Notes: generated by a model not told the origin, from the sequence alone. DNA of 64,000 nucleotides from Thermoplasmatota archaeon (GCA_040751795.1 JBFMHR010000003.1:264421-328420), one strand, 5' to 3'. Positions 4,804 through 28,073 are shown, numbered from the stretch's first letter. Numbers and translations are program-made.

Positions 4804-4922
4804 GCCGACAGGTATCCGGGTGGCTCGTAATCAACCTATCCGGCGGAGCGCACGCCGATGGAGCCAGCAGGCGGAAGGTATTACTACCTCCGACCTGTTC
4901 CGCAGGTTTGAGGAGCGGGTCC

Positions 4923-5969
4923 ATGGCCAAGGTGACGATGGCCCAAGGGGCGGGCGGCGAACGGATGCAGGAGTTCATCCGCGAGTTCGTGCTGAAGGAG
5001 CTCGAGCACGACTTCGGCGAGATCCCCCTGGGCGCCCTCGACGACGCGGCGGTCGTGGACGGCATCGTGTTCACCACGGACACCTACACCGTCAAGCCGC
5101 TCTTCTTCCCGGGAGGGGACATAGGCCGCCTCGCGGTCGCGGGCACCGTCAACGACCTGTCCGTGATGGGCGCGGCCCCGGTGGCCCTCTCCTGCGCGAT
5201 GGTCATCCAGGAGGGTTTCCCGACCGACGACCTCCACACGATCATGAAGAGCCTCAGCTCGACCGCCAGGTCAGCCGGGGTGAGGATCGTCACGGGCGAC
5301 ACGAAGGTCGTCGAGAAGGGGGCCGTCGACGGCCTGTTCATAAACACGAGCGGCATCGGGAGGCGCTCCCCGCACCTGGACCGCAACATCGCGGAGGTCA
5401 GGAGGTCGAGGGGCTTCAGGTGGGAGTGGCCCAACGACTCCGGCGTCGCCGACGGCGACATCATCATCGCGTCAGGGCCGATCGGGAACCACGGCGTGGC
5501 GCTCCTCTCCTTCAGGGAGGGCTACGGGTTCGACACCGTCGTCAAGAGCGACGCGGCCCCGCTGAACCACCTCGTCGCGGAGGCGCTGAAGGTGGGGGGA
5601 GTCACCTCCATGAAGGACCCGACCAGGGGCGGCCTCGCGAACCTGCTCAACGAGTGGTCGGAGAAGTCCTCCGTAGGGATCAGGGTCAGGGAGGAGGACA
5701 TCCCGATGGACGGCCCCGTCCTCGCCGCCTGCGAGATGCTGGGGATAGACCCCCTCGAGGTCGGCAACGAGGGCAAGGTAGTCTTGGCCGTGGTCCCGGA
5801 GAAGGCGGAGGCGGTCCTCGAGGCGATCAGGGCCGTCCCTGAGGGGTCGAGGGCCGCGATCATAGGCGAGGCGAGGAAGGACATCCGCGGCGTGATGATG
5901 GAGACGCACACTGGCGGGAAGAGGGTGCTGGAGCCGCCGGTGGGCGACCCGGTCCCGAGGATCTGCTAG
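4923..5969 (+). CDS. hypE: Hydrogenase maturation factor HypE (carbamoyl dehydratase)
   Basis: AIR-synthase-like fold with N-terminal AQGAGGERMQEF and the diagnostic C-terminal ...PRIC. Start chosen at ATG 4923 within the longer listed ORF. Confidence 0.85.
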   Translation: MAKVTMAQGAGGERMQEFIREFVLKELEHDFGEIPLGALDDAAVVDGIVFTTDTYTVKPLFFPGGDIGRLAVAGTVNDLSVMGAAPVALSCAMVIQEGFPTDDLHTIMKSLSSTARSAGVRIVTGDTKVVEKGAVDGLFINTSGIGRRSPHLDRNIAEVRRSRGFRWEWPNDSGVADGDIIIASGPIGNHGVALLSFREGYGFDTVVKSDAAPLNHLVAEALKVGGVTSMKDPTRGGLANLLNEWSEKSSVGIRVREEDIPMDGPVLAACEMLGIDPLEVGNEGKVVLAVVPEKAEAVLEAIRAVPEGSRAAIIGEARKDIRGVMMETHTGGKRVLEPPVGDPVPRIC

Positions 5970-6481
5970 GCACTGCGCCTGACGAACTCGCGTTCTATCA
6001 TGTCCACTATGGCCGGGAGGCTGGCCGCCACCCTCGGGGTGAGCCCCTCGCGGAAGTTGTCGACGTCCTCGGCCTCTATGGCCACGAAGAACACCTCCTT
6101 CGGCATCCTGTCGGGCACGACCTGCCTCCCCATGGCCAGGGCCGTGGGGATGTTGAAGCCGTGGGGCGAGGTCCCGTGGACGGTCCTCCGGAAGTCCTCC
6201 TCCGTGAGTATGTAGTGGTCCCCCGGGGTGCCCCCCCTCGTCTGTATCGCGTCGATTATGACCACCCTGTCGTGGTCGAGGACCATGTCGAGGAGCTCGA
6301 GCCCGCTCGCCGGGAGCTCCTCTATCGACACGCCCTCCAAGCCCCGCTCCATGAGCATCCTGGCGGCGTATATCCCGACGCCGTCGTCAGAGAGCACGGG
6401 GTTCCCGACTCCCACGATGAGGGTCTTCACGGGCAAGGGTAGCACCTCATGCGTATTCATCCTGTCGGGGTGGAAAATCAT
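5966..6481 (-). CDS. [NiFe] hydrogenase maturation endopeptidase (HycI/FrhD/HoxW family)
   Basis: LIVGVGNPVLSDDGVGIYAARML motif. Lies immediately downstream of mvhA on the same strand. Confidence 0.8.
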   Translation of the reverse strand: MIFHPDRMNTHEVLPLPVKTLIVGVGNPVLSDDGVGIYAARMLMERGLEGVSIEELPASGLELLDMVLDHDRVVIIDAIQTRGGTPGDHYILTEEDFRRTVHGTSPHGFNIPTALAMGRQVVPDRMPKEVFFVAIEAEDVDNFREGLTPRVAASLPAIVDMIEREFVRRSA

Positions 6482-6515: not shown

Positions 6516-8030
6516 TCAGAAGTTCCTGAGCTTCTCCGCGACCGAGCCGTCCGCCTTCCTGACGGTCACCTCTAGCGCCGGCCCGCCGTTCAGCGAGTGC
6601 GTGCCGCAGGAGTTGCAGGGGTCGTAGCACCTGAAGGCCATCTCGACCTTGTTGAGCAGCCCCTGCGAGACCATCCCGTTGTGGATGAGCGCCTTGGCCG
6701 CCTGCTTCACGCTCGTGTTCATGGCCGCGTAGTTGTTGGTCGTCGCGACGATCATGTTGATCTTGGTGCACAGGCCGTCCTTGTCGGAGGCGTAGTGGTG
6801 TATCAGCGTGCCCCTCGGGGCCTCGCATATGCCCACGCCCTCCTTGGGCGGGTTCCACGGCCCCCTGGTGTCGTCGCTGGTGATGCTCTTGTCCCTCGCG
6901 AGCTCGAGCATGCGCTCGGTGGCGTACTGGAGCTCTATCACGCGCGCCCAGTGGTACGCCAGGGTGTGGTGCACCGGCCCGGTGACGCCCAGGTCCCTCA
7001 TGGTCTTCTTGAACGCCTCGTACTCGGCCTGCGCCAGGGGGGTCGTGTAGCCCTCGCAGACGTTGATCCTGCCGAGCGGTCCGACCCTGTATATGCCGCT
7101 GGAGGGGCCGGTGGTGAAGCCGTTCCAGCCCACGTTCTTGAGGTAGGGCATCTTCATGTAGGTCCAAGGCTCGACGTGCTCCGCTATGACGTCCAGGTAC
7201 TCGCTGGGCTTGAACTTCACGACCTGCTTGCCCTTCTGGTCGACCACCCTTATGTCGCCGTCGTAGAACTGGCTCTTGTTGTTCTTGTCGACCATGCCCA
7301 TGTAGTAGGTCTCGAGGTAGTATGCGTCCTGGTTGAGCACCAGGCCGAGGTAGTCCTTGTTCGCGAGCACGACGTCGTGGAAGAGCTTGATGGTGAACTT
7401 GCCGAACTCGACGCAGCTCTTGGCCATCTCCTCCATCTGCGCGCGCTCCTCCTCGGAGATCTGCTTCGAGACGCCCCCGGGGAGGCCGAACACGGGGTGC
7501 GTCGCCCTGCCCCCGATGATCTCCTGGATCTTCTGGCCGTAGGAGCGGTGCTTGATGACCTCGGCGCCGATCGGGACGCCCACGGCGTCGACGACCCCGA
7601 GGACGTTCCTCTTGTTCGACGGGGCCGACGGCCCGAGGACGAAGTCCGCGGCCGCGAGGGCGTAGAAGTGGGCTATGTGGCTGTGCGTGTACTGCCCCAT
7701 GTAGAAGAGCTCCCTGAGCTTCTTCGCCGTGGCGGTCGGCTCTGCGCTGAACACGGCGTCCAGGGCCTTGGTGGACGCTATGTGGTGGGCCGCCGGGCAC
7801 ACGCCGCAGAGCCTGTTCGTCAGGACGGGCAGCTCCTGCACGTGCCTGCCTATGCAGAACCTCTCGAAGCCCCTGAGCTCCGGGATCTGCATGTAGGCGT
7901 TGGAGACCTCCCCCTTGTCGTCAAGGAATATCTCTATCTTGCCGTGCCCCTCGAGCCGCGTCACGGGGTCGATCGTGATCTTCTTCTCCGTCGTCTTCAC
8001 CGGTGTGTCGTTGATGATCGGTCCTGCCAT
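6516..8030 (-). CDS. mvhA: F420-non-reducing [NiFe] hydrogenase large subunit MvhA
   Basis: N-terminal RLEGHG...RxCGVC Ni-binding motif. C-terminal DPCNSCGTH is followed by a protease-cleavable extension. Length 504 aa. Confidence 0.9.
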   Translation of the reverse strand: MAGPIINDTPVKTTEKKITIDPVTRLEGHGKIEIFLDDKGEVSNAYMQIPELRGFERFCIGRHVQELPVLTNRLCGVCPAAHHIASTKALDAVFSAEPTATAKKLRELFYMGQYTHSHIAHFYALAAADFVLGPSAPSNKRNVLGVVDAVGVPIGAEVIKHRSYGQKIQEIIGGRATHPVFGLPGGVSKQISEEERAQMEEMAKSCVEFGKFTIKLFHDVVLANKDYLGLVLNQDAYYLETYYMGMVDKNNKSQFYDGDIRVVDQKGKQVVKFKPSEYLDVIAEHVEPWTYMKMPYLKNVGWNGFTTGPSSGIYRVGPLGRINVCEGYTTPLAQAEYEAFKKTMRDLGVTGPVHHTLAYHWARVIELQYATERMLELARDKSITSDDTRGPWNPPKEGVGICEAPRGTLIHHYASDKDGLCTKINMIVATTNNYAAMNTSVKQAAKALIHNGMVSQGLLNKVEMAFRCYDPCNSCGTHSLNGGPALEVTVRKADGSVAEKLRNF

Positions 8031-8036
8031 CTCATC

Positions 8037-9050
8037 TCACCCCTTCCTCTTGCGCTCCTTGACGGTCCTCCTCAGAGGGGACTTCGGGAGCGTGAACGCA
8101 TAGAAGGTCCCGAGCGGGTCCTTGACCTGCATCATCATTTCCATTATCTGCTCCTCATTTAACTTTGACTCCGAATCCGTGATGTTGAGGAGGGACGAGA
8201 CGGCGCTCAGCATGCTCGCGCCCTGGTCCGTCACGGCCTTGGTCGGTCCCATGCAGCCCCTGCAGGGCATGTTCGCGTTCGGGCACATGGCGCCGCAGCC
8301 CGCCCTCGTCGCAGGGCCGATGCATATGATGCCCTGGTCGAGGAGGCACTTCTTCGGGTCCGCCTTGATCTCGTACGACTGGTAGATCTTGTCTATGCGC
8401 CTGTTCTTCTCGACCCTCTCCCTCTTGCACTCGTCGCACAGGGTCTTGTCGCTCGCTATGACCGTCCCCTTCGGGGGCAGCGGCGCCCCCTGCGTCACGT
8501 GCTTCGCGACCACGTCGACAGCCAGGGCGATCAGGTTCGTGGTCGGCGGGCAGCCCGGCATGAAGTAGTCGACGTCGACCACCTCCTCCAGGGTCTTGAC
8601 GTCGTCGTAGAACCTGGGCAGCTCGAGCTCGCCCTCGGGCACCTTCGTGTGCTCCTGGGGGTACGTGCCGGCCTTGTTGTCCGTGGACTGGGTCTTCTTG
8701 TACACGGTCTCGAAGACCTCCTCCCTGTTGGTGACGTTGCCCAGGCCGGGCGTGCCGCCGAAGCAGGCGCACGAGCCGAAGCTGATCAGCACGACCGACT
8801 TCTGCCTCAGGACCTTCGCCACGTGCTCGTTCTCGCTGTTCCTTATGGCGCCGTTGTAGAACGACACCGTGATCGACTTGTCGGGCATCTGCTCGATCTC
8901 GTGCAGCTTGCCGTCGAACCCTATCGGCCAGAACACGACGTCCGCTATCGCGTGGACGTCCAGGATCTTGGCGTCGATGTCCAGGAGCGCGACGTCGCAG
9001 CCGCCGCACCCTGCCCCCCAGTACTGCGCGATCTTGATCTTCTCAGCCAT
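8037..9050 (-). CDS. mvhG: [NiFe] hydrogenase small subunit MvhG
   Basis: Cys-rich small-subunit motifs (GCGGCDVA, GSCACFGG, GPATRAGCGAMCP). Sits upstream of the large subunit. Confidence 0.9.
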   Translation of the reverse strand: MAEKIKIAQYWGAGCGGCDVALLDIDAKILDVHAIADVVFWPIGFDGKLHEIEQMPDKSITVSFYNGAIRNSENEHVAKVLRQKSVVLISFGSCACFGGTPGLGNVTNREEVFETVYKKTQSTDNKAGTYPQEHTKVPEGELELPRFYDDVKTLEEVVDVDYFMPGCPPTTNLIALAVDVVAKHVTQGAPLPPKGTVIASDKTLCDECKRERVEKNRRIDKIYQSYEIKADPKKCLLDQGIICIGPATRAGCGAMCPNANMPCRGCMGPTKAVTDQGASMLSAVSSLLNITDSESKLNEEQIMEMMMQVKDPLGTFYAFTLPKSPLRRTVKERKRKG

Positions 9051-9051: not shown

Positions 9052-9435
9052 TCAGTTCACCTCTCCTGCACCCGTCTTCTTCAGCAAGGCCGCGTACTGA
9101 GGCGACTGGCCCTTCATCCCCGCCTGCTCGATGAGCCTCCACTTCTTGAGGGCGATGATGTGCCTGACGATCTCCGGCTTAGGTATGCCCGTGGCGTCGT
9201 GCAGCTCGTGCACGGTCCTCAGGCCCCGCTCCATCTCCATCAGGAGCGAGTTCCTCTCCAGGTCCACCGCTGCAGCCTTCTGCACGATGAAGCTGTACCT
9301 CGCGTCGGTGATCGCCTCGCCGAAGACGTTGCCGGATGTGGTGAGCTGCCCCTTCTTCCCGAGGAGCCACCTCACCCGCTCGCCCTCGACGGTCCTCCTG
9401 GCCGCCTCTATCCTGGCCTTCCTGTCCATCCTCAT
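9052..9435 (-). CDS. Small winged-helix-like protein (domain X), free-standing homolog of the C-terminal half of the MvhD fusion at 12916..13707
   Basis: 127 aa. LERNSLLMEMERGLRTVHELHDATGIPKPEIVRHIIALKKWRLI aligns with FERSLILELSRGRARSVKELGQIMDVPTDRVLRHIVALRQKNMI of the fusion protein. ATGA overlap with mvhD upstream. Confidence 0.6.
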   Translation of the reverse strand: MRMDRKARIEAARRTVEGERVRWLLGKKGQLTTSGNVFGEAITDARYSFIVQKAAAVDLERNSLLMEMERGLRTVHELHDATGIPKPEIVRHIIALKKWRLIEQAGMKGQSPQYAALLKKTGAGEVN

Positions 9436-9884
9436 TCACCACCTCGCATCGGTGATGGTCCAAGTTCGTTTATCGTCTCGGTGAACTCCGTGATGGTCTT
9501 CTGGAACTTCTCGCCTTCACCGGCGGAGATCCACTCGAGCCTCAGCCTGTCCGGGTCGTAGCCGAACTGCTGTATCAGCATCTTCAGGAGGGCTATCCTC
9601 CTGCGGGTCCTGTAGTTCCCCCCTATGTAGTGGCAGTCCGCCGGGTGGCACCCCGCGACGAGTATGCCGTCCGCGCCCTTCTTGAACGCCCTCAGGACGA
9701 ACTCCGGGTCCACACGGGCCGAGCACATCACCCTGATGACCCTGAAGTAGGGCGGCATCTGCAGCCTGCTCACGCCCGCGAGGTCCGCGCCCGCGTACGA
9801 GCACCAGTTGCAGCAGAACACGATTATCTTCGGCTCGAACGCGTGCTCGGCCGCACCGTGCGCCTCCTTCGCCTCGCTGCTCAT
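9432..9884 (-). CDS. mvhD: Hydrogenase iron-sulfur subunit MvhD ([2Fe-2S])
   Basis: FCCNWCSYAGADLAG ... GCHxxDCHY motifs. 150 aa. ATGA overlaps with genes on both sides. Confidence 0.85.
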   Translation of the reverse strand: MSSEAKEAHGAAEHAFEPKIIVFCCNWCSYAGADLAGVSRLQMPPYFRVIRVMCSARVDPEFVLRAFKKGADGILVAGCHPADCHYIGGNYRTRRRIALLKMLIQQFGYDPDRLRLEWISAGEGEKFQKTITEFTETINELGPSPMRGGE

Positions 9885-12800
9885 CCCTTCACCTCCTGCT
9901 TCTTCGGCTGCTCAAGCGCAGCATCGATCATCGCCAGTATCTGCTCGTCCCTGAAGCCCTTCTGCGTCAGGGCCCCCGCAGGGCACGCGCCCACGCAGGC
10001 GCCGCAGCCCTTGCACAGCCCCACGTTGACGCTGACCATCTTCTTCTTCGGGTCGTCCTTGTGGGGCACGATGTCCAGCGCCTTGTACTCGCAGGTCGGG
10101 ACGCATATGCCGCAGCCGTCGCACAGGCTCTCGTCGACGCTCGCGACTATGCCCTCCGCCTCGAGGGTCGTCTTCGACAGGACGGTCATCGCCCTCGCGA
10201 CGGCCGCCAGGGCCTGGGATATGCTCTCGTCCACGAACTTCGGCCCGTGCGCCAGCCCCGCGAGGTACACGCCCTCGGTGGCGAAGTCGACCGGCCTCAG
10301 CTTCATGTGCGCCTCGAGGAAGAAGCCCTCCTTGGTCAAGGGCACCTTCAGCATCGGCGCGAGCTCCTCGGCGTCGTGCTGCGGCCTGGTGCCTGACGCG
10401 AGGACGAGGTAGTCGGGCCTGAGGACCAGCAGCTTGCCGGTGTCCTCCTCGGTCACCTTGACCTCCAGCTTCCCGCCCTTGTCCTCCACGACGGGCTTCT
10501 TCTCGTCGTCGAACCTGACGAACTTGACGCCCTTCTGCGAGGCCTCCTTGTAGTACTTCTCCCTGAAGCCGTAGGTCCTGATGTCCCTGAACAGGACGTA
10601 GACCTCCGCCTCCGGGTCCTTCTCCTTGACCTTCGTGGCGGCGGTCATCGTGCCCGTGCAGCACACGCGCGAGCAGTTCGGGTGGTCTCCCTCCCTGGAG
10701 CCGACGCACTGTATGAAGGCGTACGACTTCCCCTTGGCCTCGCCCTTCTTGAGCATCTCCTTGAACTCGAGCAGGGTCTTGACGTTCTTGCTCTTCCCGT
10801 AGAGGTACTCGCCCTCGGGCCTGTGCTCCTGCCCGCCGACCGCGAGTATGACAACGCCGTGCTCGACCTCCTTGCCGTCGGCGAGGGTGGTCTTGAAGTT
10901 CCCGACGTACCCCTCGATGTTCTTGACCTTGGCCCCGAGGTGCACGGTTATGTTCTTCTCCGCCCTGACCTCGGCCTCGAGCCTCTTCACGTGCTCCATC
11001 GGGTCGTCGCCGGAGGGCAGGTAGTGCAGCTTCCTCAGGTTGCCCCCGAGCTCCTTCTCCTTCTCCACGAGGTGGACCTTCACGCCCTGCCTGGCGAGCT
11101 CGAGCGCGGCCACCATGCCGCTCACGCCCCCGCCTATGACCAGGGCCTGCTGGTTCACCTTGATGGTGAGGTTCTCGAGCGGCTCCAGGAGCTTCGACTT
11201 GGCGATGGCCATCCTGACGAGGTCCTTGGCCTTCTTGGTGGCGGCCTTGGGCTCGTGCATGTGGATCCAGGAGCACTGGTCCCTGATGTTCGCCATCTCG
11301 AAGAGGTAGGCGTTGAGCCCGGCCTCCCTGATGGTGTTCTGGAACAGCGGCTCGTGGGTCCTGGGCGTGCAGCTCGCGACCACGACCCTGTTGAGCTTGT
11401 GCTCCTCGACCTTGCCCTTGATGCGCTCCTGCGCGTCCTGGGAGCAGGTGTAGAGGTTCTGCTCGGCGTAGACCACGCCCGGCAGCGTCTTGGCGTACTC
11501 CATGACCTCGGGCACATTGACGACGCCGCCGATGTTGATGCCGCAGTGGCACACGAACACGCCGATCCTCGCCTCCTGCCCGCCGACGTCCTTCTCCTTG
11601 GGGTACTCCTTCTTGGTGACGAGCGTGCCCCTGGCGGAGGCTATCTCCGTCCCGGCCCTGGCCGCGGCCCCGCTCGCCTCGGCGACCGTCATGGGTATGT
11701 CCTTGGGGGACGAGAACGCCCCGCTCACGAACACCCCCGGCCTCGAGGTCTCGACCGGGGTGAACACCCCGGTCTGGCAGAAGCCGTCGTCGTTGAGGCG
11801 GAACTTCATGACGCGGCTCAGCGCCTCCGCGTCGGAGGCAGGCGTCAGCCCGACTGCGAGCACCACGAGGTTGAAGACCTCCTCCTTCGGCTCGCCGTCC
11901 TCGGTGTACTTGAGTATGAGGTTCTTGGTCTTCGGGTCCTCGCTGACCGCGGCTATCCTCGACCGGACGAACCTGATCCCGTACTCGTCCTTGGCGCGGT
12001 TGTAGTACTCGTCGAACTGCTTCCCGAACGCCCTCAGGTCCATGTAGAATATCGAGGGCTTGATGTTGCCGCCGTGCTCCTTGGCTATGATGGCCTCCTT
12101 GACGGAGTACATGCAGCACACGCTGGAGCAGTACTCGTTCCCGCAGTGCTCGTCCCTCGAGCCCACGCACTGTATGAAGGCGATCTTCTCGGGTATGTCG
12201 CCGTCGGAGGGCCTCAGGACGGTGCCGAAGTACGGCCCGGTCGCGCTCAGCATCCTCTCGAACTCGATGCTCGTCACGACGTTCTGGTACACGCCGTACC
12301 CGTACTCGGGCTTCAGGCGCGCGTTGAACTCCTCGAAGCCGGGCGAGACTATGATCGACCCGACCTGGATCTCGAACACCCTCTCCTTCTGGTCGTACGC
12401 GACGGCCTTGGCCTTGCACTCCTCGGCGCATATGCCGCAGCCGATGCACCTCTCCGGGTCTATGGAGTAGACCAGCGGCACGGCCTGGGGGTAGCGCACG
12501 AATATGGCCTTGCGGACCTTCGTGCCCTCGTTGTACTCGTCCACGGTCTCGATGGGGCACTTCTGCGCGCAGCTGCCGCAGCCCGTGCACTTGGTCTCGT
12601 CGACCCTGAACGCCCTCTGCTTGACCGTGACGGTGAAGTTGCCCGCCTGCCCGTCCACTATGGCTATGTCCGCGTTCGTTATCAGCTGGATGTTGTGGTG
12701 CCTGCCCGTCGCGACGAGCTTGGGCGCCATGATGCACATGGCGCAGTCGTTGGTCGGGAAGGTCTTGTCCAGCTGGGCCATGACCCCGCCGATGCTCGGC

Positions 12801-12916
12801 TGCTTCTCCACCAGGTACACCTTGTACCCGGAGTCGGCCAGGTCCAGCGCGGACTGGAGGCCGGATATGCCCCCGCCCACGACCATGACGGCGCCGACCT
12901 TGTCAGTTGCGGCCAT
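9881..12916 (-). CDS. hdrA: Large heterodisulfide reductase subunit A: extra N-terminal FAD/thioredoxin-reductase-like module fused to a complete HdrA
   Basis: About 1011 aa. Residues 1-430 (VVGGGISGLQ, ferredoxin CxxCxxCxxxCP) are paralogous to the free 431-aa protein at 15582..16877. Residues ~450-1012 are a standard HdrA: RIGVFVCHCG Fe-S N-domain, second GGGVSG FAD motif, inserted and C-terminal 2x[4Fe-4S] domains. An alternative GTG start lies 3 nt upstream. Confidence 0.9.
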   Translation of the reverse strand: MAATDKVGAVMVVGGGISGLQSALDLADSGYKVYLVEKQPSIGGVMAQLDKTFPTNDCAMCIMAPKLVATGRHHNIQLITNADIAIVDGQAGNFTVTVKQRAFRVDETKCTGCGSCAQKCPIETVDEYNEGTKVRKAIFVRYPQAVPLVYSIDPERCIGCGICAEECKAKAVAYDQKERVFEIQVGSIIVSPGFEEFNARLKPEYGYGVYQNVVTSIEFERMLSATGPYFGTVLRPSDGDIPEKIAFIQCVGSRDEHCGNEYCSSVCCMYSVKEAIIAKEHGGNIKPSIFYMDLRAFGKQFDEYYNRAKDEYGIRFVRSRIAAVSEDPKTKNLILKYTEDGEPKEEVFNLVVLAVGLTPASDAEALSRVMKFRLNDDGFCQTGVFTPVETSRPGVFVSGAFSSPKDIPMTVAEASGAAARAGTEIASARGTLVTKKEYPKEKDVGGQEARIGVFVCHCGINIGGVVNVPEVMEYAKTLPGVVYAEQNLYTCSQDAQERIKGKVEEHKLNRVVVASCTPRTHEPLFQNTIREAGLNAYLFEMANIRDQCSWIHMHEPKAATKKAKDLVRMAIAKSKLLEPLENLTIKVNQQALVIGGGVSGMVAALELARQGVKVHLVEKEKELGGNLRKLHYLPSGDDPMEHVKRLEAEVRAEKNITVHLGAKVKNIEGYVGNFKTTLADGKEVEHGVVILAVGGQEHRPEGEYLYGKSKNVKTLLEFKEMLKKGEAKGKSYAFIQCVGSREGDHPNCSRVCCTGTMTAATKVKEKDPEAEVYVLFRDIRTYGFREKYYKEASQKGVKFVRFDDEKKPVVEDKGGKLEVKVTEEDTGKLLVLRPDYLVLASGTRPQHDAEELAPMLKVPLTKEGFFLEAHMKLRPVDFATEGVYLAGLAHGPKFVDESISQALAAVARAMTVLSKTTLEAEGIVASVDESLCDGCGICVPTCEYKALDIVPHKDDPKKKMVSVNVGLCKGCGACVGACPAGALTQKGFRDEQILAMIDAALEQPKKQEVKG

Positions 12917-13707
12917 CACTGCTCACCTCCGATGACGATGGTCTTGTATGTTGGAGTGAACCCCTCCGGGTGCTCCATCGCTATCATGTTCTTCTGCCTC
13001 AGGGCGACGATGTGCCTCAGGACCCTGTCCGTAGGGACGTCCATGATCTGCCCCAGCTCCTTGACGGACCTGGCCCTGCCCCTGGACAGCTCGAGGATGA
13101 GGCTCCTCTCGAACTCCTCCTCCGTCGAGGCGTCTATGATCTTGTCGAGCTCCGCCGGGTCCAGCTTGTTGCCGTAGGCGTTGCCCTTGTTGACCAGGTT
13201 CAGCTCCCTGCCGACGAGCGCCTTGAGCCTGAAGGTCTCCGACGCGCCGTCCGCTGCGGCCACCCTGTCGCCCAGCCTCTGGTCCTTCCTGACCTTGCTC
13301 GGGCCGAGCCTCCTTATGTTCTCGGTGAACTCGGTCACGACCTTGGAGAACTTCTCCCCCTCGGACGCGGAGACCCACTCCAGCCTGAGCCTCTCGGGCT
13401 CGAGCCCGCTCTCCTCGAGCAGGCGCTTCATCAGCCTCACGCGCTTCTCGGTGTAGTAGTTCCCGGAGATGTAGTGGCAGTCGCCTATGTGGCAGCCGCC
13501 CAGGAGCACGCCGTCCGCCCCGGCCCTGAATATGTCGAGGACGAGGTGGGGGCTGATCCTGGTCGAGCACATGACCCTCACGGCCCTTATGTTCGTGGGG
13601 TACTGGTACCTGCTGACCCCGCACAGGTCGGCGCCCGCGTACGAGCACCAGTTGCACAGGAACCCTATGATCTTCGGCTCGAACTCCGCCTTGGGTGCGT
13701 CGGCCAT
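12916..13707 (-). CDS. MvhD domain fused to C-terminal winged-helix-like domain X
   Basis: The N-terminal ~140 aa are MvhD (FLCNWCSYAGADL, GCHIGDCHY). The C-terminal ~115 aa are homologous to the free-standing ORF 9052..9435. Confidence 0.8.
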   Translation of the reverse strand: MADAPKAEFEPKIIGFLCNWCSYAGADLCGVSRYQYPTNIRAVRVMCSTRISPHLVLDIFRAGADGVLLGGCHIGDCHYISGNYYTEKRVRLMKRLLEESGLEPERLRLEWVSASEGEKFSKVVTEFTENIRRLGPSKVRKDQRLGDRVAAADGASETFRLKALVGRELNLVNKGNAYGNKLDPAELDKIIDASTEEEFERSLILELSRGRARSVKELGQIMDVPTDRVLRHIVALRQKNMIAMEHPEGFTPTYKTIVIGGEQ

Positions 13708-16877: not shown

Positions 16878-17085
16878 TCAAAGTCCTCCACGAGTCCTAA
16901 ACGATGGTTCCCCTAGTCTACGCCTCACTCGGCTCCGTGATCCTGAACTCAAGGGGTTTGCGCGCCCTGCCGGGCCCCTCTCCGTAACCTTTCCTCTGTA
17001 TTATCTGTTTCGTTGGACGGGCGACGAGTGTCGCGCCCCCGGACCTCACGTCCGTGCGGATATCGTCGGCCGGCAGGCGTCCGCG

Positions 17086-17529
17086 TCACTTGGCCGAAAG
17101 GACCTCCTTCGCCTCGGTGTCCTTCTGGATCTCCGTGACCTTGACCTTGAAGGGGGCCTTCTTCCTGCCTTGCATCCCCTCGGACGCGAACCTCTGGCAG
17201 TTCGGGTATGTGCAGGGGGTGCACTTCTTGTCCTTGCACGACAGCTCTATGAGCACGAGCCTGTCCCTGGTGTCCGCGGCCCCGGTGACCGGCTTCCTGA
17301 CCTCGAACATCTTGGTCATCCGCGTCTCGTAGGGCTTCTTCTTCGGCTCTATCCTGGCGAACCTCTGGCAGTTCGGGTAGGTGCACGGGTCGCACTTCTT
17401 GTCCTTGCACGACAGCTCGATCAGCAGGACCCTGTCGCCCTGCCCCTTCGCCTGGGCCGCCTCCTTGGCGTCCTTCTCCTTCTTCTCCGTCTTCGGTGTC
17501 ATCCTAACAGTCCTTCGCGTTTCATTCAA
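17086..17529 (-). CDS. Small basic Cys-rich protein with an internal tandem duplication (2 x C-x5-C-x2-C-x4-C)
   Basis: Contains LIELSCKDKKC(D/T)PCTYPNCQRFA twice, 57 aa apart. The underlying ~81-nt DNA segments at 17187..17267 and 17358..17438 are about 89% identical. Lys-rich composition in a GC-rich genome. Overlaps the stop of the upstream gene. Confidence 0.55.
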   Translation of the reverse strand: MNETRRTVRMTPKTEKKEKDAKEAAQAKGQGDRVLLIELSCKDKKCDPCTYPNCQRFARIEPKKKPYETRMTKMFEVRKPVTGAADTRDRLVLIELSCKDKKCTPCTYPNCQRFASEGMQGRKKAPFKVKVTEIQKDTEAKEVLSAK

Positions 17530-19087
17530 GCTGCTCAGCGATGGCGACGCTGAGGTCCTTGATCGGTATGTCGACCTGCTCCTTGGGCACCTGGGTCTTG
17601 TTCTCCTGGACGCAGGAGAGGTGTATGAGGCACTTGTAGCACCCCGTCACGAGGCACTCTGCCCCCGTCCTCTTGGCCTCCTTCAGCCTCTCGACCTGCA
17701 GCCTCCTGGAGGTCTCGTCGCAGGTGGCCCATGCGCTCACGCCGCAGCAGAGGGCCTTGTCCCGGACGTTCTCCATCTCCAGGATCTGCGTGCCCTTGGA
17801 GGCGGTCAGGGCGCTCCTGGGCTGGTCGTATATGCCCATGTGCCTGCCGAGCCTGCACGAGTCCTGGAAGGTGAGCTTCCGGGCGCTGTCCTTCAGCCTG
17901 AGCCTGCCCTCCTTGACCAGGTCGTCCACGAACTCCGAGATGTGGACCATCTCGAAGGGGTGGTCCCCGGCCAGCTCCTGGTAGTCCAGGTCGAACGTGC
18001 GCATGCACTCGGGGCACGAGAAGACGACCTTCTTGGCCCCCGAGGCCTTTATGACCTCGAGGTTCTTCTTCATCAGCTTCTGGAGCGCCGCCTCGTCCCC
18101 CGTCCAGTTGAGGTCGTGCCCGCAGCAGACCTCGTCGTTGCTGACGGCCGGGACAATGCCCGCCCTGTTCATAATCTTTACGACCGCCCGGGGTATGCCA
18201 GACAGGTCCAGCTTCCTCTCCTTGAATATCGCGTCGAAGTACGGCGCGCAGCCCGTGAAGAAGAAGACCTCGCCCTTGTCGGCTATCTTGAGTTCGGGGG
18301 TGACCCAGCTGAGCCTGTCCTGCTTGAAGCTCCCGTGGGCCATGATCCTCATCACGCCCTGCATGAGCCCGCCCTGGGAGCAGGCGGGGTCGTTCTCGAG
18401 GGCGACGGCCTCGCCCCTGAGGCCCCGTATGAACCCGGAGTAGTCGACCTTGTACGGGCACATGGAGTTGCACTGCTCGCAGGTGACGCAGGTCCATATG
18501 TCCTTGTCCTTAGAGAGGTTGCCCACCTGCCCCTCGGTCGCCCTCAGGACTATGGTCCTCGGGGCGAACTCGGTGTTGTACTTGGCGACGGGGCAGACGG
18601 TGGTGCACTTCCCGCACTCGACGCAGTCGAAGGCCCCCGTGTCCTCGATGAGCGCGTCTATGCGCTGCTTGAGGGTGTCGGGGTTCCTGGTGGCCCTCTT
18701 CACCTTGGGCATCGGGTTGGGGCCGAGCGCCCTGACCTGCTCGGTGAACTCCTTCATGGTCGCGGCGAACTTCTGGCCCTCCGAGGCGGAGATCCACTCC
18801 AGCCTCATCCGGTCCCTGCCCACGCCGAGCCTGTCGAGGACCTCCTTCACGGACTCCATCCGCTTCTCCGCCTCGACGTTCCCGGATATGTAGTGGCAGT
18901 CGCCAATGTGGCACCCGGCGACGAGCACTCCGTCCGCGCCGAGCTCGAGCGCCCTCACGATGAAGTAAGGCTCGACCCTGCCGGAGCACATCACCCTTAT
19001 GACGCGCGCGTTGGGCGGGTACTGCATCCTGCCCACGCCCGCGAGGTCCGCGCCCGCGTACGAGCACCAGTTGCAGCAGAAGGCCAC
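17522..19087 (-). CDS. MvhD-domain / HdrD-like (HdrC + HdrB) fusion protein; start codon uncertain (GTG at 19087 or CTG at 19118 overlapping the hdrA stop)
   Basis: N-terminal FEPNIVAFCCNWCSYAGADLAG...GCHIGDCHY (MvhD). Two CxxCxxCxxxCP motifs (HdrC-like). C-terminal Cys-rich CCG-type domains (CCGHDL..., ALCCGVSAWATC..., TGCYKC) as in HdrB/HdrD. No ATG or TTG lies between the hdrA stop and the conserved FCC motif. Confidence 0.75.
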   Translation of the reverse strand: MAFCCNWCSYAGADLAGVGRMQYPPNARVIRVMCSGRVEPYFIVRALELGADGVLVAGCHIGDCHYISGNVEAEKRMESVKEVLDRLGVGRDRMRLEWISASEGQKFAATMKEFTEQVRALGPNPMPKVKRATRNPDTLKQRIDALIEDTGAFDCVECGKCTTVCPVAKYNTEFAPRTIVLRATEGQVGNLSKDKDIWTCVTCEQCNSMCPYKVDYSGFIRGLRGEAVALENDPACSQGGLMQGVMRIMAHGSFKQDRLSWVTPELKIADKGEVFFFTGCAPYFDAIFKERKLDLSGIPRAVVKIMNRAGIVPAVSNDEVCCGHDLNWTGDEAALQKLMKKNLEVIKASGAKKVVFSCPECMRTFDLDYQELAGDHPFEMVHISEFVDDLVKEGRLRLKDSARKLTFQDSCRLGRHMGIYDQPRSALTASKGTQILEMENVRDKALCCGVSAWATCDETSRRLQVERLKEAKRTGAECLVTGCYKCLIHLSCVQENKTQVPKEQVDIPIKDLSVAIAEQLE

Positions 19088-19113
19088 TATGTTCGGCTCG
19101 AAACGCTCCTCGG

Positions 19114-22100
19114 TCAGGCGCCCACCTCCTCGTCCTTCCCCTCGGGCGCGAGGAGCGCCTCGAGCATGGTCATGATCTGGTCGGTCTTGAAGTGCTTCGG
19201 CCTTATCGCCCTGGAGCAGCACGCGACCGCGCAGGAGCCGCAGCCCTTGCACAGAGCCTCGTTGATCTTCGACTTGAACACCCCTGGCGAGACCTCCTCG
19301 ACCCTGGGCGCCCCGTACTCGCACAGCTCCTCGCACCTGCCGCATGCGATGCACTTCTCGGGGTCTACCTCCGAGACGACGCCCTCCGCCTCGATGAACG
19401 GCTTGGACAGGACCGTGTTGACCCTGGCGGCCGCCGCAAGGGCCTGGGATATGCTCTCGTCTATGAGCCTCGGGGAGTGCGCCAGGCCGCAGAGGAATAT
19501 GCCGTCGGTGGCGAAGTCGACCGGCCTCAGCTTCATGTGCGCCTCGAGGAAGAAGCCCTCCCTCGTCAGCGGGACCTTGAGCATCTGGGCCAGGTCCTTG
19601 TTGTCAGGGTTGGGCCTGACGGCCGCGTTGAGGACCAGGTAGTCGGGCCTGATGGTCACGGTCTGCTCTATGAACTGCTCGTCCACCTCGACGGTGAGGT
19701 GGCCCCCGTGCTCGCTCACCCTCGGGGGCGACGAGGGGTCGTACCTCAGGAACACCACGCCGAGCCTCGCGGCCTCGTTGTAGTTCTCCTCCCTGAAGCC
19801 GAAGGTCCTGATGTCCCTGTAGAGGACGTACACGGCCGTCCCCGGGTGGTCCTGCTTGATCTTCATCGCGTTGGCCATGGCCGTGGAGCAGCAGATCCTG
19901 GAGCAGTTGGGGTGCTCCTCGTCCCTCGAGCCGACGCACTGGATTATGACCACGCTCTTCGCCTTGAAGTCCTTGCCCGAGACCATCTCCCCGAGGTCGG
20001 TCTGCCTGATGACCTTCGGGTCCTTCCCGAAAAGGTACTGCTCGGGCTCGTGCTCGACGGCCCCCGTCGCCACGACTATGGCGCCGTGCTGGACCTTCTC
20101 CCCGCTCCCGAGGGTGGTCTCGAAGTTGCCGATGTAGCCCTTGACCTCGGCCACGGTGTCCTCCAGGTGGACCTTGATCCTCGGGTCCCCCATGACCTCC
20201 TTCTCCAGCTTCCTGAAGGTCTCCTGGGGGTCGACCCCTATGAGGGTGCGGTGTATCCGCCTGAGGTGGCCGCCGAGGTGCTTGCTCTTCTCCACGACGT
20301 GCACGTCGAAGCCGCTCCTGGCGATCTCCAGGGCGGCGGTCATGCCGCTCAGGCCGCCCCCAATGACGAGCGCGGACTGGGTGACGGGTATCCTGGGCTG
20401 CGGGAGCGCCTCGAGCGTGGCCGCCTTGGCGACGGCCATGCGGACCAGGTCCTTGGCCTTCTCCGTCGCGCGCTCCGGCTCCCTCCTGTGCACCCACGAG
20501 CACTGGTCCCTGATGTTGGCCATCTCGAACAGGTACTTGTTCAGGCCCGCCTCCTTCACAGTGTTCTGGAAGAGCGGCTCGTGGGTCCTGGGGGTGCAGC
20601 TCGCGACCACGACCCTGTTGAGGTCGTGCTTCTCGATGGTCTCCCTGATCTTCTTCTGGGTGTCCTGCGAGCAGGTGTAGAGGTTCTGCTCAGCCACGAT
20701 CACGTGCTGGAGAGTCTTGGCGTACTCCATGACCTCCGGCACGTCCACGACCGAGCCGATGTTGATGCCGCAGTGGCAGACGAAGACGCCGATCCTCGGC
20801 TCCTTGCCCGCGACCTCCTTCTCCTTGGGGTACTCCTTCTTTGTGACGAGTGTCCCCCTGCTCTCCGAGAGGAGCGCCGCCGCCTTGCCGGCGGCGCCGC
20901 TGGCCTGCGCGATCGAGTCGGGGATGTCCTTGGGCCCGGAGAACGCGCCGCACACGTAGACGCCGGGGACGGATGTCTCAACCGGGGACAGCTCGTCCGT
21001 CTCGCAGAAGCCGAACTTGTTGAGGTCGACGCCCAGCACCTTGGCGAGCGCGCCCGTCGCCTCCGGCGGCCTCGCGCCCGCCGAGAGCACCACGAGGTCG
21101 AACGCCTCCTCGGCGATGTCGGCCCCCTCGAGGTAGCTGAGGATGACGTTGCCCGTGGCAGGGTCCTCCTGCAGCTTGGATATCCTGTTGTTCCTGAGGA
21201 CGCGGACGCCGTACTCGTTCTCCGCGCGCATCAGGTATTCCTCGAACTCCTTGCCGAAGGCCCGCGTGTCCATGAAGAAGATGGCCGTGTCGAGGCCCGG
21301 GACGTGCTCCTTGCCGATGACGGCCTGCTTGAGGGCGGCCATGCAGCAGTAGGAGGAGCAGTAGGTGTTCCCCGTCTGCGCGTCCCTCGAGCCGACGCAC
21401 TGGACGAAGGCGATCTTCTTCGGGACGTCGCCGTCCGAGGGGCGGATCACATGCCCCTCCGTCGGGCCCGACGCGCTCAGCATCCTCTCGAACTCGATGT
21501 TGGTCAGGACGTTGGCGTACACCCCGTGCCCGTACTCCGCCTTCTTCGACGCCTCGAAGACGTCGTAGCCGGGGCTGAGGATGATCGAGCCCACCTCGAC
21601 GACCTCCTCCTTGTCCGGCTTCTCGGAGTAGCTGATGGCCTTCGCCTCGCAGAATTTCTCGCAGATGCCGCAGCCGATGCAGAGGCCCCTGTCTATGGTA
21701 TAGACCAGGGGCACGGCCTGGGGGAAGGGCACGTAGATGGCCTTGGCCGGCGCGAGCTCCCTGTCGAAGGCGTTCAGCCCCTCGACCGGGCAGTGCTCCG
21801 CGCAGACGCCGCAGCCCGTGCACTTCTCCTCGATGATGTACCTGGAGCGCCTGGTGAGGGTGACCTTGAAGTCGCCGGCCTTCCCGTCGACCTTCTTGAG
21901 CTCCGCGTTGGTGAGCATGGTGATGTTCTCGTGCCTGCCCGTGGCTACGAGCTTGGGGGACACGATGCACATGGCGCAGTCGTTGGTCGGGAAGGTCTTG
22001 TCCAGCTGGGCCATGGTGCCGCCTATGCTGAGGCCGGCCTCGAGTATGTACACCTTGAAGCCGGAGTCGGCGAGGTCCAGGGCCGCCTGTATGCCGGCGG

Positions 22101-22149
22101 GGCCGCCGCCCACGACGAGGACGGCGCCGACCTTCTTGTGCTCTGCCAT
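19114..22149 (-). CDS. hdrA: Large heterodisulfide reductase subunit A (second copy of the tandem-module architecture)
   Basis: 1011 aa. Same arrangement as 9881..12916, about 60-70% identical to it by eye. Two GxGxxG FAD motifs, RIGVFVCHCG, several 4Fe-4S motifs. Confidence 0.9.
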   Translation of the reverse strand: MAEHKKVGAVLVVGGGPAGIQAALDLADSGFKVYILEAGLSIGGTMAQLDKTFPTNDCAMCIVSPKLVATGRHENITMLTNAELKKVDGKAGDFKVTLTRRSRYIIEEKCTGCGVCAEHCPVEGLNAFDRELAPAKAIYVPFPQAVPLVYTIDRGLCIGCGICEKFCEAKAISYSEKPDKEEVVEVGSIILSPGYDVFEASKKAEYGHGVYANVLTNIEFERMLSASGPTEGHVIRPSDGDVPKKIAFVQCVGSRDAQTGNTYCSSYCCMAALKQAVIGKEHVPGLDTAIFFMDTRAFGKEFEEYLMRAENEYGVRVLRNNRISKLQEDPATGNVILSYLEGADIAEEAFDLVVLSAGARPPEATGALAKVLGVDLNKFGFCETDELSPVETSVPGVYVCGAFSGPKDIPDSIAQASGAAGKAAALLSESRGTLVTKKEYPKEKEVAGKEPRIGVFVCHCGINIGSVVDVPEVMEYAKTLQHVIVAEQNLYTCSQDTQKKIRETIEKHDLNRVVVASCTPRTHEPLFQNTVKEAGLNKYLFEMANIRDQCSWVHRREPERATEKAKDLVRMAVAKAATLEALPQPRIPVTQSALVIGGGLSGMTAALEIARSGFDVHVVEKSKHLGGHLRRIHRTLIGVDPQETFRKLEKEVMGDPRIKVHLEDTVAEVKGYIGNFETTLGSGEKVQHGAIVVATGAVEHEPEQYLFGKDPKVIRQTDLGEMVSGKDFKAKSVVIIQCVGSRDEEHPNCSRICCSTAMANAMKIKQDHPGTAVYVLYRDIRTFGFREENYNEAARLGVVFLRYDPSSPPRVSEHGGHLTVEVDEQFIEQTVTIRPDYLVLNAAVRPNPDNKDLAQMLKVPLTREGFFLEAHMKLRPVDFATDGIFLCGLAHSPRLIDESISQALAAAARVNTVLSKPFIEAEGVVSEVDPEKCIACGRCEELCEYGAPRVEEVSPGVFKSKINEALCKGCGSCAVACCSRAIRPKHFKTDQIMTMLEALLAPEGKDEEVGA

Positions 22150-22150: not shown

Positions 22151-22609
22151 TCAGACCCCCTCCCCGTAGATCGGGCCGAGCCTCTGGAGCTCGGCGACCA
22201 TCTCCTTCACGACGTTCGCGAACTTCTGCCCCTCGGAGCCCGCTATCCACTCGATCCTGAACCTCTGCGCCTCTATCCCCGCGTCCTCGAGGAACGATGA
22301 CAGGAAGTCGCCGCGCATGGCGGCCTTCTCGTTGCCGTTGATGTAGTGGCAGTCCGCCGGGTGGCACCCGGCGACTATGACGCCGTCCGCCCCGAGCTCG
22401 AAGGCCTTGAGCACGAAGGCAGGGTCCACCCTCCCGGAGCACATGACCCTGACTATCCTCACGTTCGGGGGGTACTGTATCCTGGTCGTACCGGCGAGGT
22501 CGGCCCCCGCGTACGAGCACCAGTTGCAGCAGAAGGCCACGATCCTCGGCTCGTACCCGGCCTGCTCCTCGGCCGCCTCGTGCTTCTTCGCGTGCGTGGT
22601 CACGGTCAC
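22151..22609 (-). CDS. mvhD: MvhD-type [2Fe-2S] subunit (standalone, GTG start overlapping the hdrB stop as GTGA)
   Basis: EPRIVAFCCNWCSYAGADLAG, GCHPADCHY. 153 aa. Confidence 0.8.
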   Translation of the reverse strand: MTVTTHAKKHEAAEEQAGYEPRIVAFCCNWCSYAGADLAGTTRIQYPPNVRIVRVMCSGRVDPAFVLKAFELGADGVIVAGCHPADCHYINGNEKAAMRGDFLSSFLEDAGIEAQRFRIEWIAGSEGQKFANVVKEMVAELQRLGPIYGEGV

Positions 22610-23523
22610 GACCCCCTGAGCTTCCGCAGGAGCGAGTGGGCCGACACGTGGTGCGTGTCGAAGCCCAGCGAGATCGGGTCTATGCCCATGGCGAGCGCCT
22701 GGAACTGGGAGACGTGCATCACGGGGATGCCGTCCTTGGAGAAGGCCTTCTGGGCGTTGTCGAACTGGAGGAGGCAGAACGGGCAGCCCGTGACGACGCA
22801 GTCCGCGCCCACGGCCCCGATCTTCCTGCACTTGTCCTCGGTGAGCGAGTTGGCCAGGTCCACGACGTGCGACCTCACGCCGCCGCCCGCGCCGCAGCAG
22901 TCGAGCTTGTCGTCGTAGTCCACGCTCGTCGCGCCGCACGCCTCGACTATGTTGTCCAGGAGGACGGGGTTGTTGGGGTCGTCTATGGTCCTGCTCTCGG
23001 TCGGCCTGAGGTAGTGGCAGCCGTAGTGGACCGCGACCCTGATGTTCTTCAGCGGCCGCTTCACCTTCGCCTGGATGGCCTCGATCCCGATGTCCTTGGC
23101 CATGAGCTCGATGTAGTGCCGGACGGTGACGGGCTCGAAGACCCTCCTCTTCCCCTCGCTCTTCTTCGGCACGCCGGTGTACTTCTTGCCGACCTGCGCC
23201 AGGACCCTGTTCACCTTGCCCATGCTCTTCGGGTCCTTGAGGTACTCGGTGGCCTTCATGAGGGACGTCAGGCAGCCGTTGCAGACCGTCAGGATGTCCC
23301 TCCTCTCGTCCTGCGCCAGGACGAGGTTCCTCGCCGCGAGGAGCAGCCAGGTCTCCTTGTCGGTGGAGTAGAATATCCCCGGGACGGGGCAGCACGAGAA
23401 CTCGGGTATGTCCTTGACGTCGAGGTCGAAGCCGTCCTTGCCGCAGACCCATCTCACGGCGTACTCGATGCCCGGGTACCTGTTGGGTATGACGCACCCG
23501 AAGAAGTAGGCGTAGGACGTCAC
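22606..23523 (-). CDS. hdrB: Heterodisulfide reductase subunit B
   Basis: Two CCG domains (CCPVPG..., CCGAGGG...CPFC). GTG start preceded by GGAGGTG. 305 aa. Confidence 0.9.
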   Translation of the reverse strand: MTSYAYFFGCVIPNRYPGIEYAVRWVCGKDGFDLDVKDIPEFSCCPVPGIFYSTDKETWLLLAARNLVLAQDERRDILTVCNGCLTSLMKATEYLKDPKSMGKVNRVLAQVGKKYTGVPKKSEGKRRVFEPVTVRHYIELMAKDIGIEAIQAKVKRPLKNIRVAVHYGCHYLRPTESRTIDDPNNPVLLDNIVEACGATSVDYDDKLDCCGAGGGVRSHVVDLANSLTEDKCRKIGAVGADCVVTGCPFCLLQFDNAQKAFSKDGIPVMHVSQFQALAMGIDPISLGFDTHHVSAHSLLRKLRGS

Positions 23524-26188: not shown

Positions 26189-26324
26189 GGTTCCCCCTCC
26201 TACTCGACTTGCCGCGTCGAAGTGCCGGATGGCCCGAGTGACCCCGCGGGAAGGCACCATTTCCTGCCGACTGGCGCTCCCACTCAGACCAGGTGTCGGA
26301 CGAGTGCAGATAATAAAGAGGTGC

Positions 26325-28070: not shown

Positions 28071-28073
28071 CGC

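Follow-up and report, generated by a model that had tools for sequence, protein, structure and literature searches.

How many electron-bifurcating sites are present in an HdrA that carries two flavin adenine dinucleotide (FAD)-binding modules on a single polypeptide, and which of its two flavins bifurcates? The question is raised by a locus in a stretch of 64,000 nucleotides from a Thermoplasmatota archaeon (GCA_040751795.1, JBFMHR010000003.1:264421-328420; hereafter the window, with positions counted from its first letter). An earlier note on this DNA had described there two HdrAs of about 1010 residues, at 9881-12916 and 19114-22149, as possible covalent pseudo-dimers. The analysis described below indicates that the two proteins, designated T1 and T2, are probably fused 'type II' HdrAs, i.e. 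intramolecular heterodimers of two complementary HdrA paralogues in which the flavin of the N-terminal module is the only one to bifurcate.

Identification of two fused HdrAs

Both proteins are encoded at the positions given, on the minus strand, by two long open reading frames (ORFs) running from 12916 to 9881 (T1, MEW5748276.1) and from 22149 to 19114 (T2, MEW5748281.1), each of 1011 amino acids (aa) when counted from the ATG. Read on the plus strand, the same coordinates translate into nonsense. In this DNA of 65 % GC, true frames were recognized by a GC content of about 0.95 at the third codon position (GC3) combined with about 0.40 at the second (GC2). The GC3/GC2 values of T1 (0.96/0.39) and T2 (0.96/0.42) show this signature, and both ORFs were thus accepted as true genes. 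T1 begins at 12916 with an ATG that shares 1 nt with the TGA of the gene upstream, and its stop codon overlaps the ATG of mvhD as ATGA. Both proteins are present in NCBI, on a single 353-kb contig from a Candidatus Thermoplasmatota metagenome-assembled genome (MAG), and are annotated generically as HdrA family proteins.

Judged by sequence, T1 and T2 are unmistakably HdrA. T1 matches the HdrA of PDB entry 5ODC (chain 5ODC_A) with E = 4e-217 and has 117 full-length homologues at 61 % identity or higher; T1 and T2 are 58 % identical to each other and share the same anatomy. It should be noted that T1 scores below the NCBIfam cut-offs for HdrA/HdrA2, namely: 1034.7 vs. 1100 for NF040770, 747.4 vs. 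1400 for NF041778 and 696.2 vs. 1300 for NF041891.

Two complementary modules in one polypeptide

All HdrA modules of the window were aligned to the sequence of 5ODC_A (Methanothermococcus thermolithotrophicus), which was rebuilt from the T1 alignment and reproduces the published landmarks C197, E356 and K409; HdrA residue numbers below refer to it. The alignment of T1 to this PDB chain is a mosaic. Residues 12-372 of T1 correspond to 5ODC_A 147-509 (the TrxR/FAD domain, inserted ferredoxin included), residues 448-602 to 5ODC_A 2-156 (the N-terminal cluster domain, or N-domain; 209 bits), and residues 846-1000 to 5ODC_A 497-648 (the end of the TrxR domain together with the C-terminal ferredoxin).

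The N-module of T1 (residues 1-430; 11627-12916, minus strand), as defined by the PDB alignment, the residue map and Foldseek, is an HdrA core. In both T1 and T2, this module opens directly at the FAD motif (GGGISG/GGGPAG), which in T1 is the GxGxxG of residues 14-19 (G14/G16/G19), with E37 at the position of E173. Cys58 and Cys61 correspond to Cys194 and Cys197, Glu220 to E356 and Lys273 to K409, while Cys250/263/267/268 provide the TrxR cluster (Cys386/399/403/404 in 5ODC). The inserted 2x[4Fe-4S] ferredoxin domain (residues ~101-182; 12371-12616, minus strand; Cys 110, 113, 116, 120, 157, 160, 163 and 167) is predicted to be the low-potential exit. In the alignment to 5ODC_A, neither an N-domain of the RIGVFVCHCG type nor a C-terminal ferredoxin is found in the N-modules of T1 and T2. 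This bears out the earlier description of a 430-aa N-terminal unit with a GxGxxG FAD motif and a single ferredoxin (the eight-Cys insert C110-C167) that lacks the RIGVFVCHCG domain. That this unit is an extra, TrxR-like addition does not hold, since of the two cores it is this one that resembles HdrA more closely: the N-module is 47-49 % and the C-module 34-39 % identical to the solved HdrA core, and Foldseek superimposes the T1 N-module on 8rwn_A with a template-modelling (TM) score of 0.94 at 1.9 Å root-mean-square deviation.

The two modules are connected by a Lys-rich linker (T1 residues 431-447, ...TLVTKKEYPKEKDVGGQ; 11576-11626, minus strand) that is kept between T1 and T2. It had been described as short and Lys-rich, and indeed reads GTLVTKKEYPKEK in both copies; the extended form GTLVTKKEYPKEK(D/E)V.G is near-identical in T1 and T2, and joins the N-module to ...RIGVFVCHCGINIG..., which is followed by the second FAD motif, GGG(V/L)SG.

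The C-module of T1 starts with the N-domain (residues 448-585; 11162-11575, minus strand), in which Cys456/458/491/516/548 correspond to Cys11/13/46/71/103. Next is a second, stripped TrxR core (residues 586-915; 10172-11161, minus strand) with a GxGxxG at 595-600, i.e. an FAD site made of G595/G597/G600 and Glu618 (E173), and with a TrxR cluster of its own (Cys737/748/752/753). The protein ends in a 2x[4Fe-4S] ferredoxin domain (residues 916-1011; 9884-10171, minus strand; Cys932/935/938/942 and Cys968/971/974/978), which like the N-domain is a part of the mobile arm discussed below. Compared to 5ODC_A, the C-modules of T1 and T2 lack the whole inserted ferredoxin (~237-318), a 12-residue loop (~363-374) and Cys194/Cys197, and hence do not constitute the full-length, complete HdrA that had been assigned to this half. 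The position of K409 is occupied by Thr758 in T1 and by Ala in T2, and that of E356 by Lys719 in T1 and by Gly in T2.

Each accessory element (N-domain, inserted ferredoxin, C-terminal ferredoxin, Cys197) is therefore present exactly once per polypeptide: neither module has all four HdrA domains together with Cys197, and the full set is found once in the fused protein. The predicted cofactor complement amounts to seven [4Fe-4S] clusters, along with two FAD motifs. The AF2 model of T1 is confident overall, with a pLDDT (predicted local distance difference test) of 84.8 and a predicted TM score (pTM) of 0.87; the linker residues have pLDDT of 74-88. The fold search compares single chains, and so supports the folds while being silent on any dimer-like packing.

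Conservation of the complementary arrangement

The arrangement was followed in two sets of relatives, namely: a close set of 119 full-length family members with at least 61 % identity, and a broad set of 38 uninterrupted sequences from many phyla, made up of T1, T2 and 36 loci. The latter are those among 80 related loci, from species-representative genomes, that gave a clean ORF with both motifs; many bacterial loci have no uninterrupted ORF across the match, possibly due to a selenocysteine at position 197 or to insertions.

All the N-module sites listed above (FAD, Fe-S, Cys194/197, E356, K409 and the Cys of the inserted ferredoxin) are invariant in both the close (119/119) and the broad set (38/38). 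The possibility that the N-module had lost its FAD-contacting residues, or is an unrelated oxidoreductase, had been put forward as a check on the pseudo-dimer idea; the complete set of HdrA FAD and Fe-S residues in every sequence speaks otherwise. A Cys at position 194 or 197 of the C-module is found in none of the 119 close and none of the 38 broad sequences. Hence, Cys58/61 are confined to the N-half and the N-domain to the C-half throughout (119/119 and 38/38). In the C-module, in turn, the FAD motif, TrxR cluster, N-domain Cys and C-terminal ferredoxin are retained without exception in both sets, the TrxR-domain [4Fe-4S] ligands being complete in both modules in 119/119.

In the close set (n = 119), the C-module position of K409 is Thr in 72 sequences, Ser in 14 and Lys in 26, while the position of E356 is Lys in 71 and Glu in 40. 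The loss of Lys409/Glu356 from the C-module is specific to one clade, and is seen in T1, T2 and the proteins of loci L001, L004 and L006. A dead C-module flavin as a general property of type II HdrAs was considered and rejected, as most lineages keep both E356 and K409 there.

A genome scan identified at least 599 loci co-linear with T1. Their hosts include Thermoplasmata, Methanomassiliicoccales, Bathyarchaeia, Asgard archaea, Archaeoglobi, Methanosarcina and ANME-2, as well as Desulfobacterales, Syntrophobacterales, Chloroflexota, Planctomycetota and others. T1 is 50 % identical to the protein of Methanosarcina sp. DH2 (L073) over residues 4-997 and 49 % identical to that of an ANME-2 archaeon (L078) over residues 7-999, and the motif order of T1 and T2 is the same in the Methanosarcina, ANME-2, Archaeoglobi and Asgard representatives. 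Longer fused HdrAs, of 1090-1170 aa, were observed at loci L010, L011 and L012, e.g. in Asgard MAGs.

An unfused pair with the same division of parts

The two halves of T1 and T2 also have separately encoded counterparts in the window. SN (MEW5748278.1; 15582-16877, minus strand) is a core-only HdrA of 431 aa, class A6-like, with Cys197, the inserted ferredoxin, E356 and K409 all present. SC (MEW5748277.1; 13711-15585, minus strand; 624 aa) is class A12-like and combines the arm with a stripped core that keeps E356 and K409; it also has an Arg/Glu-rich insertion of ~50 aa near 5ODC position 420. The ATG of SC overlaps the stop codon of SN as ATGA, which indicates that the two genes are translationally coupled.

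SN and SC are 44-47 % identical to the T1 modules and are attested as separate genes in clusters of 33 members. Two origins of the pair were considered and ruled out: a frameshifted third fused copy, by the clean ATGA junction and the separate genes in the 33-member clusters, and a direct precursor of T1/T2, by the low identity. SN and SC are old paralogues of the T1/T2 modules, neither a recent precursor nor a fission product.

A predicted intramolecular pseudo-dimer with one bifurcating flavin

The flavin-N5 pair Lys409/Glu356 is a proposed signature of bifurcation. In the solved Hdr homodimers (Elp-Hdr and Fdh-Hdr-Fmd), there are two units that act in trans: a mobile arm, to which one protomer contributes its N-terminal cluster domain and C-terminal ferredoxin domain and which includes the bound MvhD-type [2Fe-2S] subunit, serves the core of the partner and carries the [2Fe-2S] cluster to the partner FAD' (PMC12350162). 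The high-potential electron then exits via the partner's TrxR cluster HA4' to HdrC/HdrB, while the low-potential electron passes from the shuttle cluster of the arm to HA5' in the partner's inserted ferredoxin (PMC12350162). Residue 197 of the core is placed between the FAD and the partner's N-domain cluster, at the interface with the latter (PMC9012536; PMC13518236).

Transferred to T1 and T2, this scheme would assign the N-domain of the C-module and its C-terminal ferredoxin, along with the MvhD encoded next door, to a single arm. The N-module, with its FAD, Cys58/Cys61, Glu220/Lys273, TrxR cluster and inserted ferredoxin, would be the one complete core. The C-module's own core would be left over as an orphan: it would have no arm at its disposal, and both the inserted ferredoxin and Cys197 are missing from it. 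Together, the two modules would rebuild one working half of a normal HdrA dimer, with one bifurcating flavin per polypeptide, i.e. that of the N-module. In the case of T1, electrons would flow from H2 through MvhAG to MvhD, and would be split between ferredoxin, via the inserted ferredoxin domain, and a disulfide-type acceptor, via the HdrC/B-like partners of the cluster. The orphan core would mainly maintain a dimer-like scaffold, its FAD site and cluster possibly serving as a non-bifurcating relay.

This reading builds on the domain and residue complement of the modules, its conservation, the adjacency of mvhD and the existing unfused pair. The loss of Lys409/Glu356 from the orphan core of this clade lends further support to a single bifurcating flavin, which by inference is the one in the N-module. 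Of the covalent pseudo-dimer with an asymmetric two-flavin unit that the earlier note had envisaged, the asymmetric intramolecular pseudo-dimer stands as the best reading of T1 and T2, with a packing that is predicted; its architecture has to be redrawn as two complementary, incomplete HdrAs.

Several points weigh against this reading. The pTM alone does not prove a dimer-like packing, nor that Cys61 lies near the N-domain cluster site. Two bifurcation sites have been argued for by Lyu et al. (PMC12054007). In the broad set, the C-module keeps E356 in 32/38 and K409 in 27/38 sequences (with Arg in another six), and since both residues are mostly kept outside the clade, a dead second flavin cannot be generalized. 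The orphan core invariantly retains its GxGxxG, Glu618 and all four TrxR-cluster Cys, which argues for a redox role beyond that of a scaffold. Furthermore, the immediate operon of T1 lacks hdrBC, methanogenesis markers are absent from the 64-kb window, and there is no mcr gene in it.

The alternative that survives best, although we consider it doubtful, is that the flavin of the C-module is used without bifurcating, as a two-electron entry site or as a relay to a second HdrC/B-type module. The invariant FAD motifs and HA4-like cluster of the C-module are consistent with such a role, as is the presence of two HdrB/C-type modules in the cluster, one of which is fused to MvhD; a precedent may be the second FAD of the Moorella HdrA, which according to Buckel and Thauer (PMC5861303) has two FAD. 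However, the C-module has no recognizable donor-binding domain, the segment in which the Rossmann motif for NAD(P)H would be expected holds a cluster ligand instead (IQCVGSR), and the cluster has no partner of the metFV or NADH-dehydrogenase type.

That both flavins bifurcate, so that each polypeptide holds two independent sites as proposed by Lyu et al. 2025 (PMC12054007), is in our view unlikely. FAD-binding motifs and a TrxR-domain cluster are indeed found in both modules, and E356 and K409 are kept in the C-module of most lineages. Yet the core of the C-module would be armless, as the N-module has neither an N-domain nor a C-terminal ferredoxin to offer it; it also lacks the inserted ferredoxin as a low-potential exit, as well as Cys194/197, and in T1 and T2 has Thr/Ala in place of K409 and Lys/Gly in place of E356.

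The original proposal of a complete HdrA extended by an N-terminal, possibly unrelated, pyridine-nucleotide-disulfide-oxidoreductase module has become highly improbable. The C-terminal ~570 aa do look superficially like an HdrA, with an N-domain at the start and a ferredoxin at the end, but the alignment, in which this unit is devoid of the inserted ferredoxin and Cys194/197, refutes the proposal. Moreover, it is the N-terminal unit that is closer to canonical HdrA and has all the bifurcation-signature residues, and at another place in the window a conserved pair of genes encodes these two halves separately. Finally, a merger of adjacent SN-like and SC-like genes through assembly or sequencing error, which might be suspected from the unfused pair with its ATGA junction 1 kb away, is refuted by the two independent fused copies with a conserved in-frame linker, by the full-length homologues in independent assemblies and the co-linear loci in many phyla, and by the mere 44-47 % identity of SN and SC to the T1 modules.

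Organization of the surrounding Hdr/Mvh cluster

The genes between 5966 and 26260 could all be assigned, and encode HdrA, HdrB, HdrC, MvhD, MvhA, MvhG, HycI, HTH-like (helix-turn-helix-like) and small Cys proteins; no metF or metV is found among them. On the minus strand the order is hypD, canonical hdrA, hdrC, hdrB, mvhD, T2, an mvhD-hdrC-hdrB fusion, the gene of a small Cys-repeat protein, SN, SC, a fusion of mvhD to a winged-helix-like domain, T1, mvhD, the gene of a free-standing HTH-like protein, mvhG, mvhA and the gene of a hycI-type protease.

The canonical set (22151-26260) lies directly upstream of T2, with junctions that overlap or abut. It consists of an HdrA with all four domains and all 5ODC landmark residues (24101-26260, minus strand; an ORF of 719 aa whose start is uncertain), HdrC (23520-24104, minus strand), HdrB with two CCG domains (22606-23523, minus strand) and MvhD (22151-22609, minus strand). 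T2 is immediately followed by the MvhD-HdrC-HdrB fusion (17522-19117, minus strand; ~531 aa, FlpD + Fer4 + 2 x CCG). Downstream of SN/SC and upstream of T1 is the MvhD fused to a winged-helix-like C-terminal domain (12916-13707, minus strand; 263 aa). The MvhD (FlpD) of 150 aa immediately downstream of T1 (9432-9884, minus strand) is followed, further downstream, by the small (MvhG; 8037-9050, minus strand) and large (MvhA; 6516-8030, minus strand) subunits of a [NiFe] hydrogenase, and MvhA by the HycI-type protease (5966-6481, minus strand).

The window therefore holds four HdrA units and four MvhD (FlpD) domains, i.e. one per unit. The association extends to the relatives, since 61 of the 80 related loci have an MvhD domain that begins, on the same strand, no more than 400 nt downstream. 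We tentatively suggest, as a possibility well short of probable, that this Thermoplasmatota clade has a naturally 'half-dead' HdrA pseudo-dimer, whose orphan core retains FAD and a [4Fe-4S] cluster after the loss of Lys409/Glu356, and that the four HdrA units, each with its own MvhD, surround one MvhAG either as a single multi-flavin machine or as alternative cores on one hydrogenase. If true, such a machine or set of alternative cores would represent a new organization of bifurcating modules, and the locus would offer a clean natural system for the role of the HdrA-type second flavin.

The start of the MvhD-HdrC-HdrB gene after T2 is unusual in that no ATG, GTG or TTG precedes the FlpD domain. 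A CTG, which overlaps the TGA of T2 as 'CTGA', lies 5 nt downstream of a strong Shine-Dalgarno sequence (GGAGGTG); all other junctions of the cluster have a Shine-Dalgarno sequence with ATG or GTG. The gene could start by (re)initiation at the CTG, or a frameshift could append MvhD-HdrCB to T2; the latter was entertained because a class 'A3+MVH' exists in the literature.

Two small proteins are also encoded in the cluster. The first (17086-17502, minus strand; ~138 aa) has two copies of the motif LIELSCKDKKCxPCTYPNCQRFA, with four Cys each. It matches no Pfam family, is present in two of the 80 related loci, both from Thermoplasmata (L001 and L006), and could serve as a small partner that binds a metal or an Fe-S cluster. 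The second is the HTH-like protein of 127 aa between mvhD and mvhG (9052-9435, minus strand), whose homologues include the last ~120 aa of the MvhD fusion of 263 aa and are found in 17 of the 80 related loci, among them loci of Deltaproteobacteria, Asgard archaea and Bathyarchaeia. Rather than an ordinary regulator, the protein seems to be a conserved companion of MvhD.

Genes for [NiFe]-hydrogenase maturation lie on both sides of the Hdr/Mvh cluster, namely: hypE (4908-5969, plus strand) on one side, and hypD, hypA, a hypC-sized ORF, hypF and hypB (26621-31228, minus strand) on the other. Also near the cluster is a multi-PAS, histidine-kinase-like protein of 914 aa (114-2858, plus strand), possibly a redox- or H2-responsive sensor. 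Between 32000 and 40000, the GC content dips to 0.61-0.62 and the AT skew changes sign as the minus-strand Hdr/Hyp block gives way to plus-strand genes; GC3 is atypically low, at 0.65, in the ORF of positions 35007-35861. Scans of the whole window for tRNA and Rfam families gave no match.

At 16949-19067 and 22610-23497, three ORFs (185, 320 and 153 aa) and the initial ~300 aa of a fourth ('448-aa X-MvhD') were discarded as wrong-frame artefacts because of their lack of Pfam/NCBIfam matches, their Arg/Gly/Pro-rich composition and the GC3/GC2 frame plot. The true genes at these places are those for HdrB, the short MvhD, the MvhD-HdrC-HdrB fusion and the small Cys-rich protein. The mechanical list of ORFs for this GC-rich window needs a GC3/GC2 frame check before any annotation.

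Comparison with known HdrA systems

The concept of a fused HdrA is already published, and such proteins are widespread; T1 and T2 are in this respect a solid but ordinary case. Chadwick et al. 2022 (PMC9012536) described both tandem (HdrA5/6 and HdrA12/13) and fused (HdrA3/4) HdrAs in which Cys197 and the N-domain are complementary, and proposed that the latter are 'their own heterodimeric partners'. Type II HdrA was defined by Lyu, Yu & Lu 2025 (PMC12054007) as a fusion of class A6 and class A12, with 176 examples in mcrA-bearing archaea, of which ~75 % of the surveyed proteins keep K409 and E356 in both domains. PDB sequence and fold searches returned no solved structure of a fused HdrA.

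T1 and T2 resemble these type II/HdrA3-4 proteins in having two TrxR/FAD domains in one polypeptide of ~1000 aa, an N-domain and a Cys197 that complement each other from different halves, and MvhD and HdrBC nearby. The type II halves are related to the core-only A6 and to A12, which the T1/T2 halves match by domain content, and the proteins of Methanosarcina and ANME-2 align co-linearly with T1 and have their motifs in the same order. There are also differences. The surveys published so far were of ANME genomes and of archaea with mcrA, whereas the host here is a Thermoplasmatota MAG with no mcr in the window. Unlike ~75 % of the surveyed type II proteins, the T1/T2 clade has lost K409 and E356 from the C-module. 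The partners of T1 and T2 are an MvhAG hydrogenase and an MvhD-HdrCB fusion, while Lyu et al. (PMC12054007) emphasize a cluster with FdhB and a molybdopterin protein. In addition, according to the text of Chadwick et al. (PMC9012536) it is the N-terminal half that carries the N-domain; in all the sequences examined here, including that of ANME-2, it is in the C-terminal half.

SN and SC are arranged in the same way as the unfused pairs that Chadwick et al. described, HdrA5/6 and HdrA12/13, in which a gene with Cys197 and no N-domain has a neighbour with the reverse. Pairs of this type, SN/SC included, are predicted to form heterodimers, of which T1 and T2 would represent the covalently fused state.

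With the canonical homodimeric HdrA of MvhADG-HdrABC, Fdh-Hdr-Fmd and Elp-Hdr (PDB 5ODC, 7BKB and 8RVU), T1 and T2 share the folds (TM 0.77-0.94), the cofactor residues, the MvhD partner and the logic of an arm and a core that act in trans. The canonical dimer is symmetric and has two arms, two full cores and 12 [4Fe-4S] clusters, in contrast to one arm, one full core, one stripped core, seven predicted [4Fe-4S] clusters and two FAD motifs in the fused proteins. A further parallel, by description, is the HdrA of the Moorella thermoacetica MetFV-HdrABC-MvhD complex (PMC5861303; PMC9012536). According to Mock et al. 2014, as related in the account of Buckel and Thauer (PMC5861303), this HdrA has two FAD in the purified complex, only one of which is proposed to bifurcate. 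The complex is described there as bacterial and NADH-dependent, with MetFV as the partner, and thus differs from T1 and T2, whose cluster has no metFV.

What the locus adds is, first, a Thermoplasmatota clade in which the orphan core lacks residues thought necessary for bifurcation, in support of the one-site reading and, second, a 20-kb cluster in which a canonical, a split and two fused HdrAs are gathered around one hydrogenase, every unit having an MvhD. Fused HdrAs may be regarded as a natural symmetry-breaking experiment on the HdrA dimer, in which one arm and one core would be the minimal bifurcating unit and a second flavin site is left over. Our current understanding of HdrA is not overturned by these proteins; with HdrA in its canonical, its split and its fused state next to one another, the locus is convenient for evolutionary and biochemical comparison.

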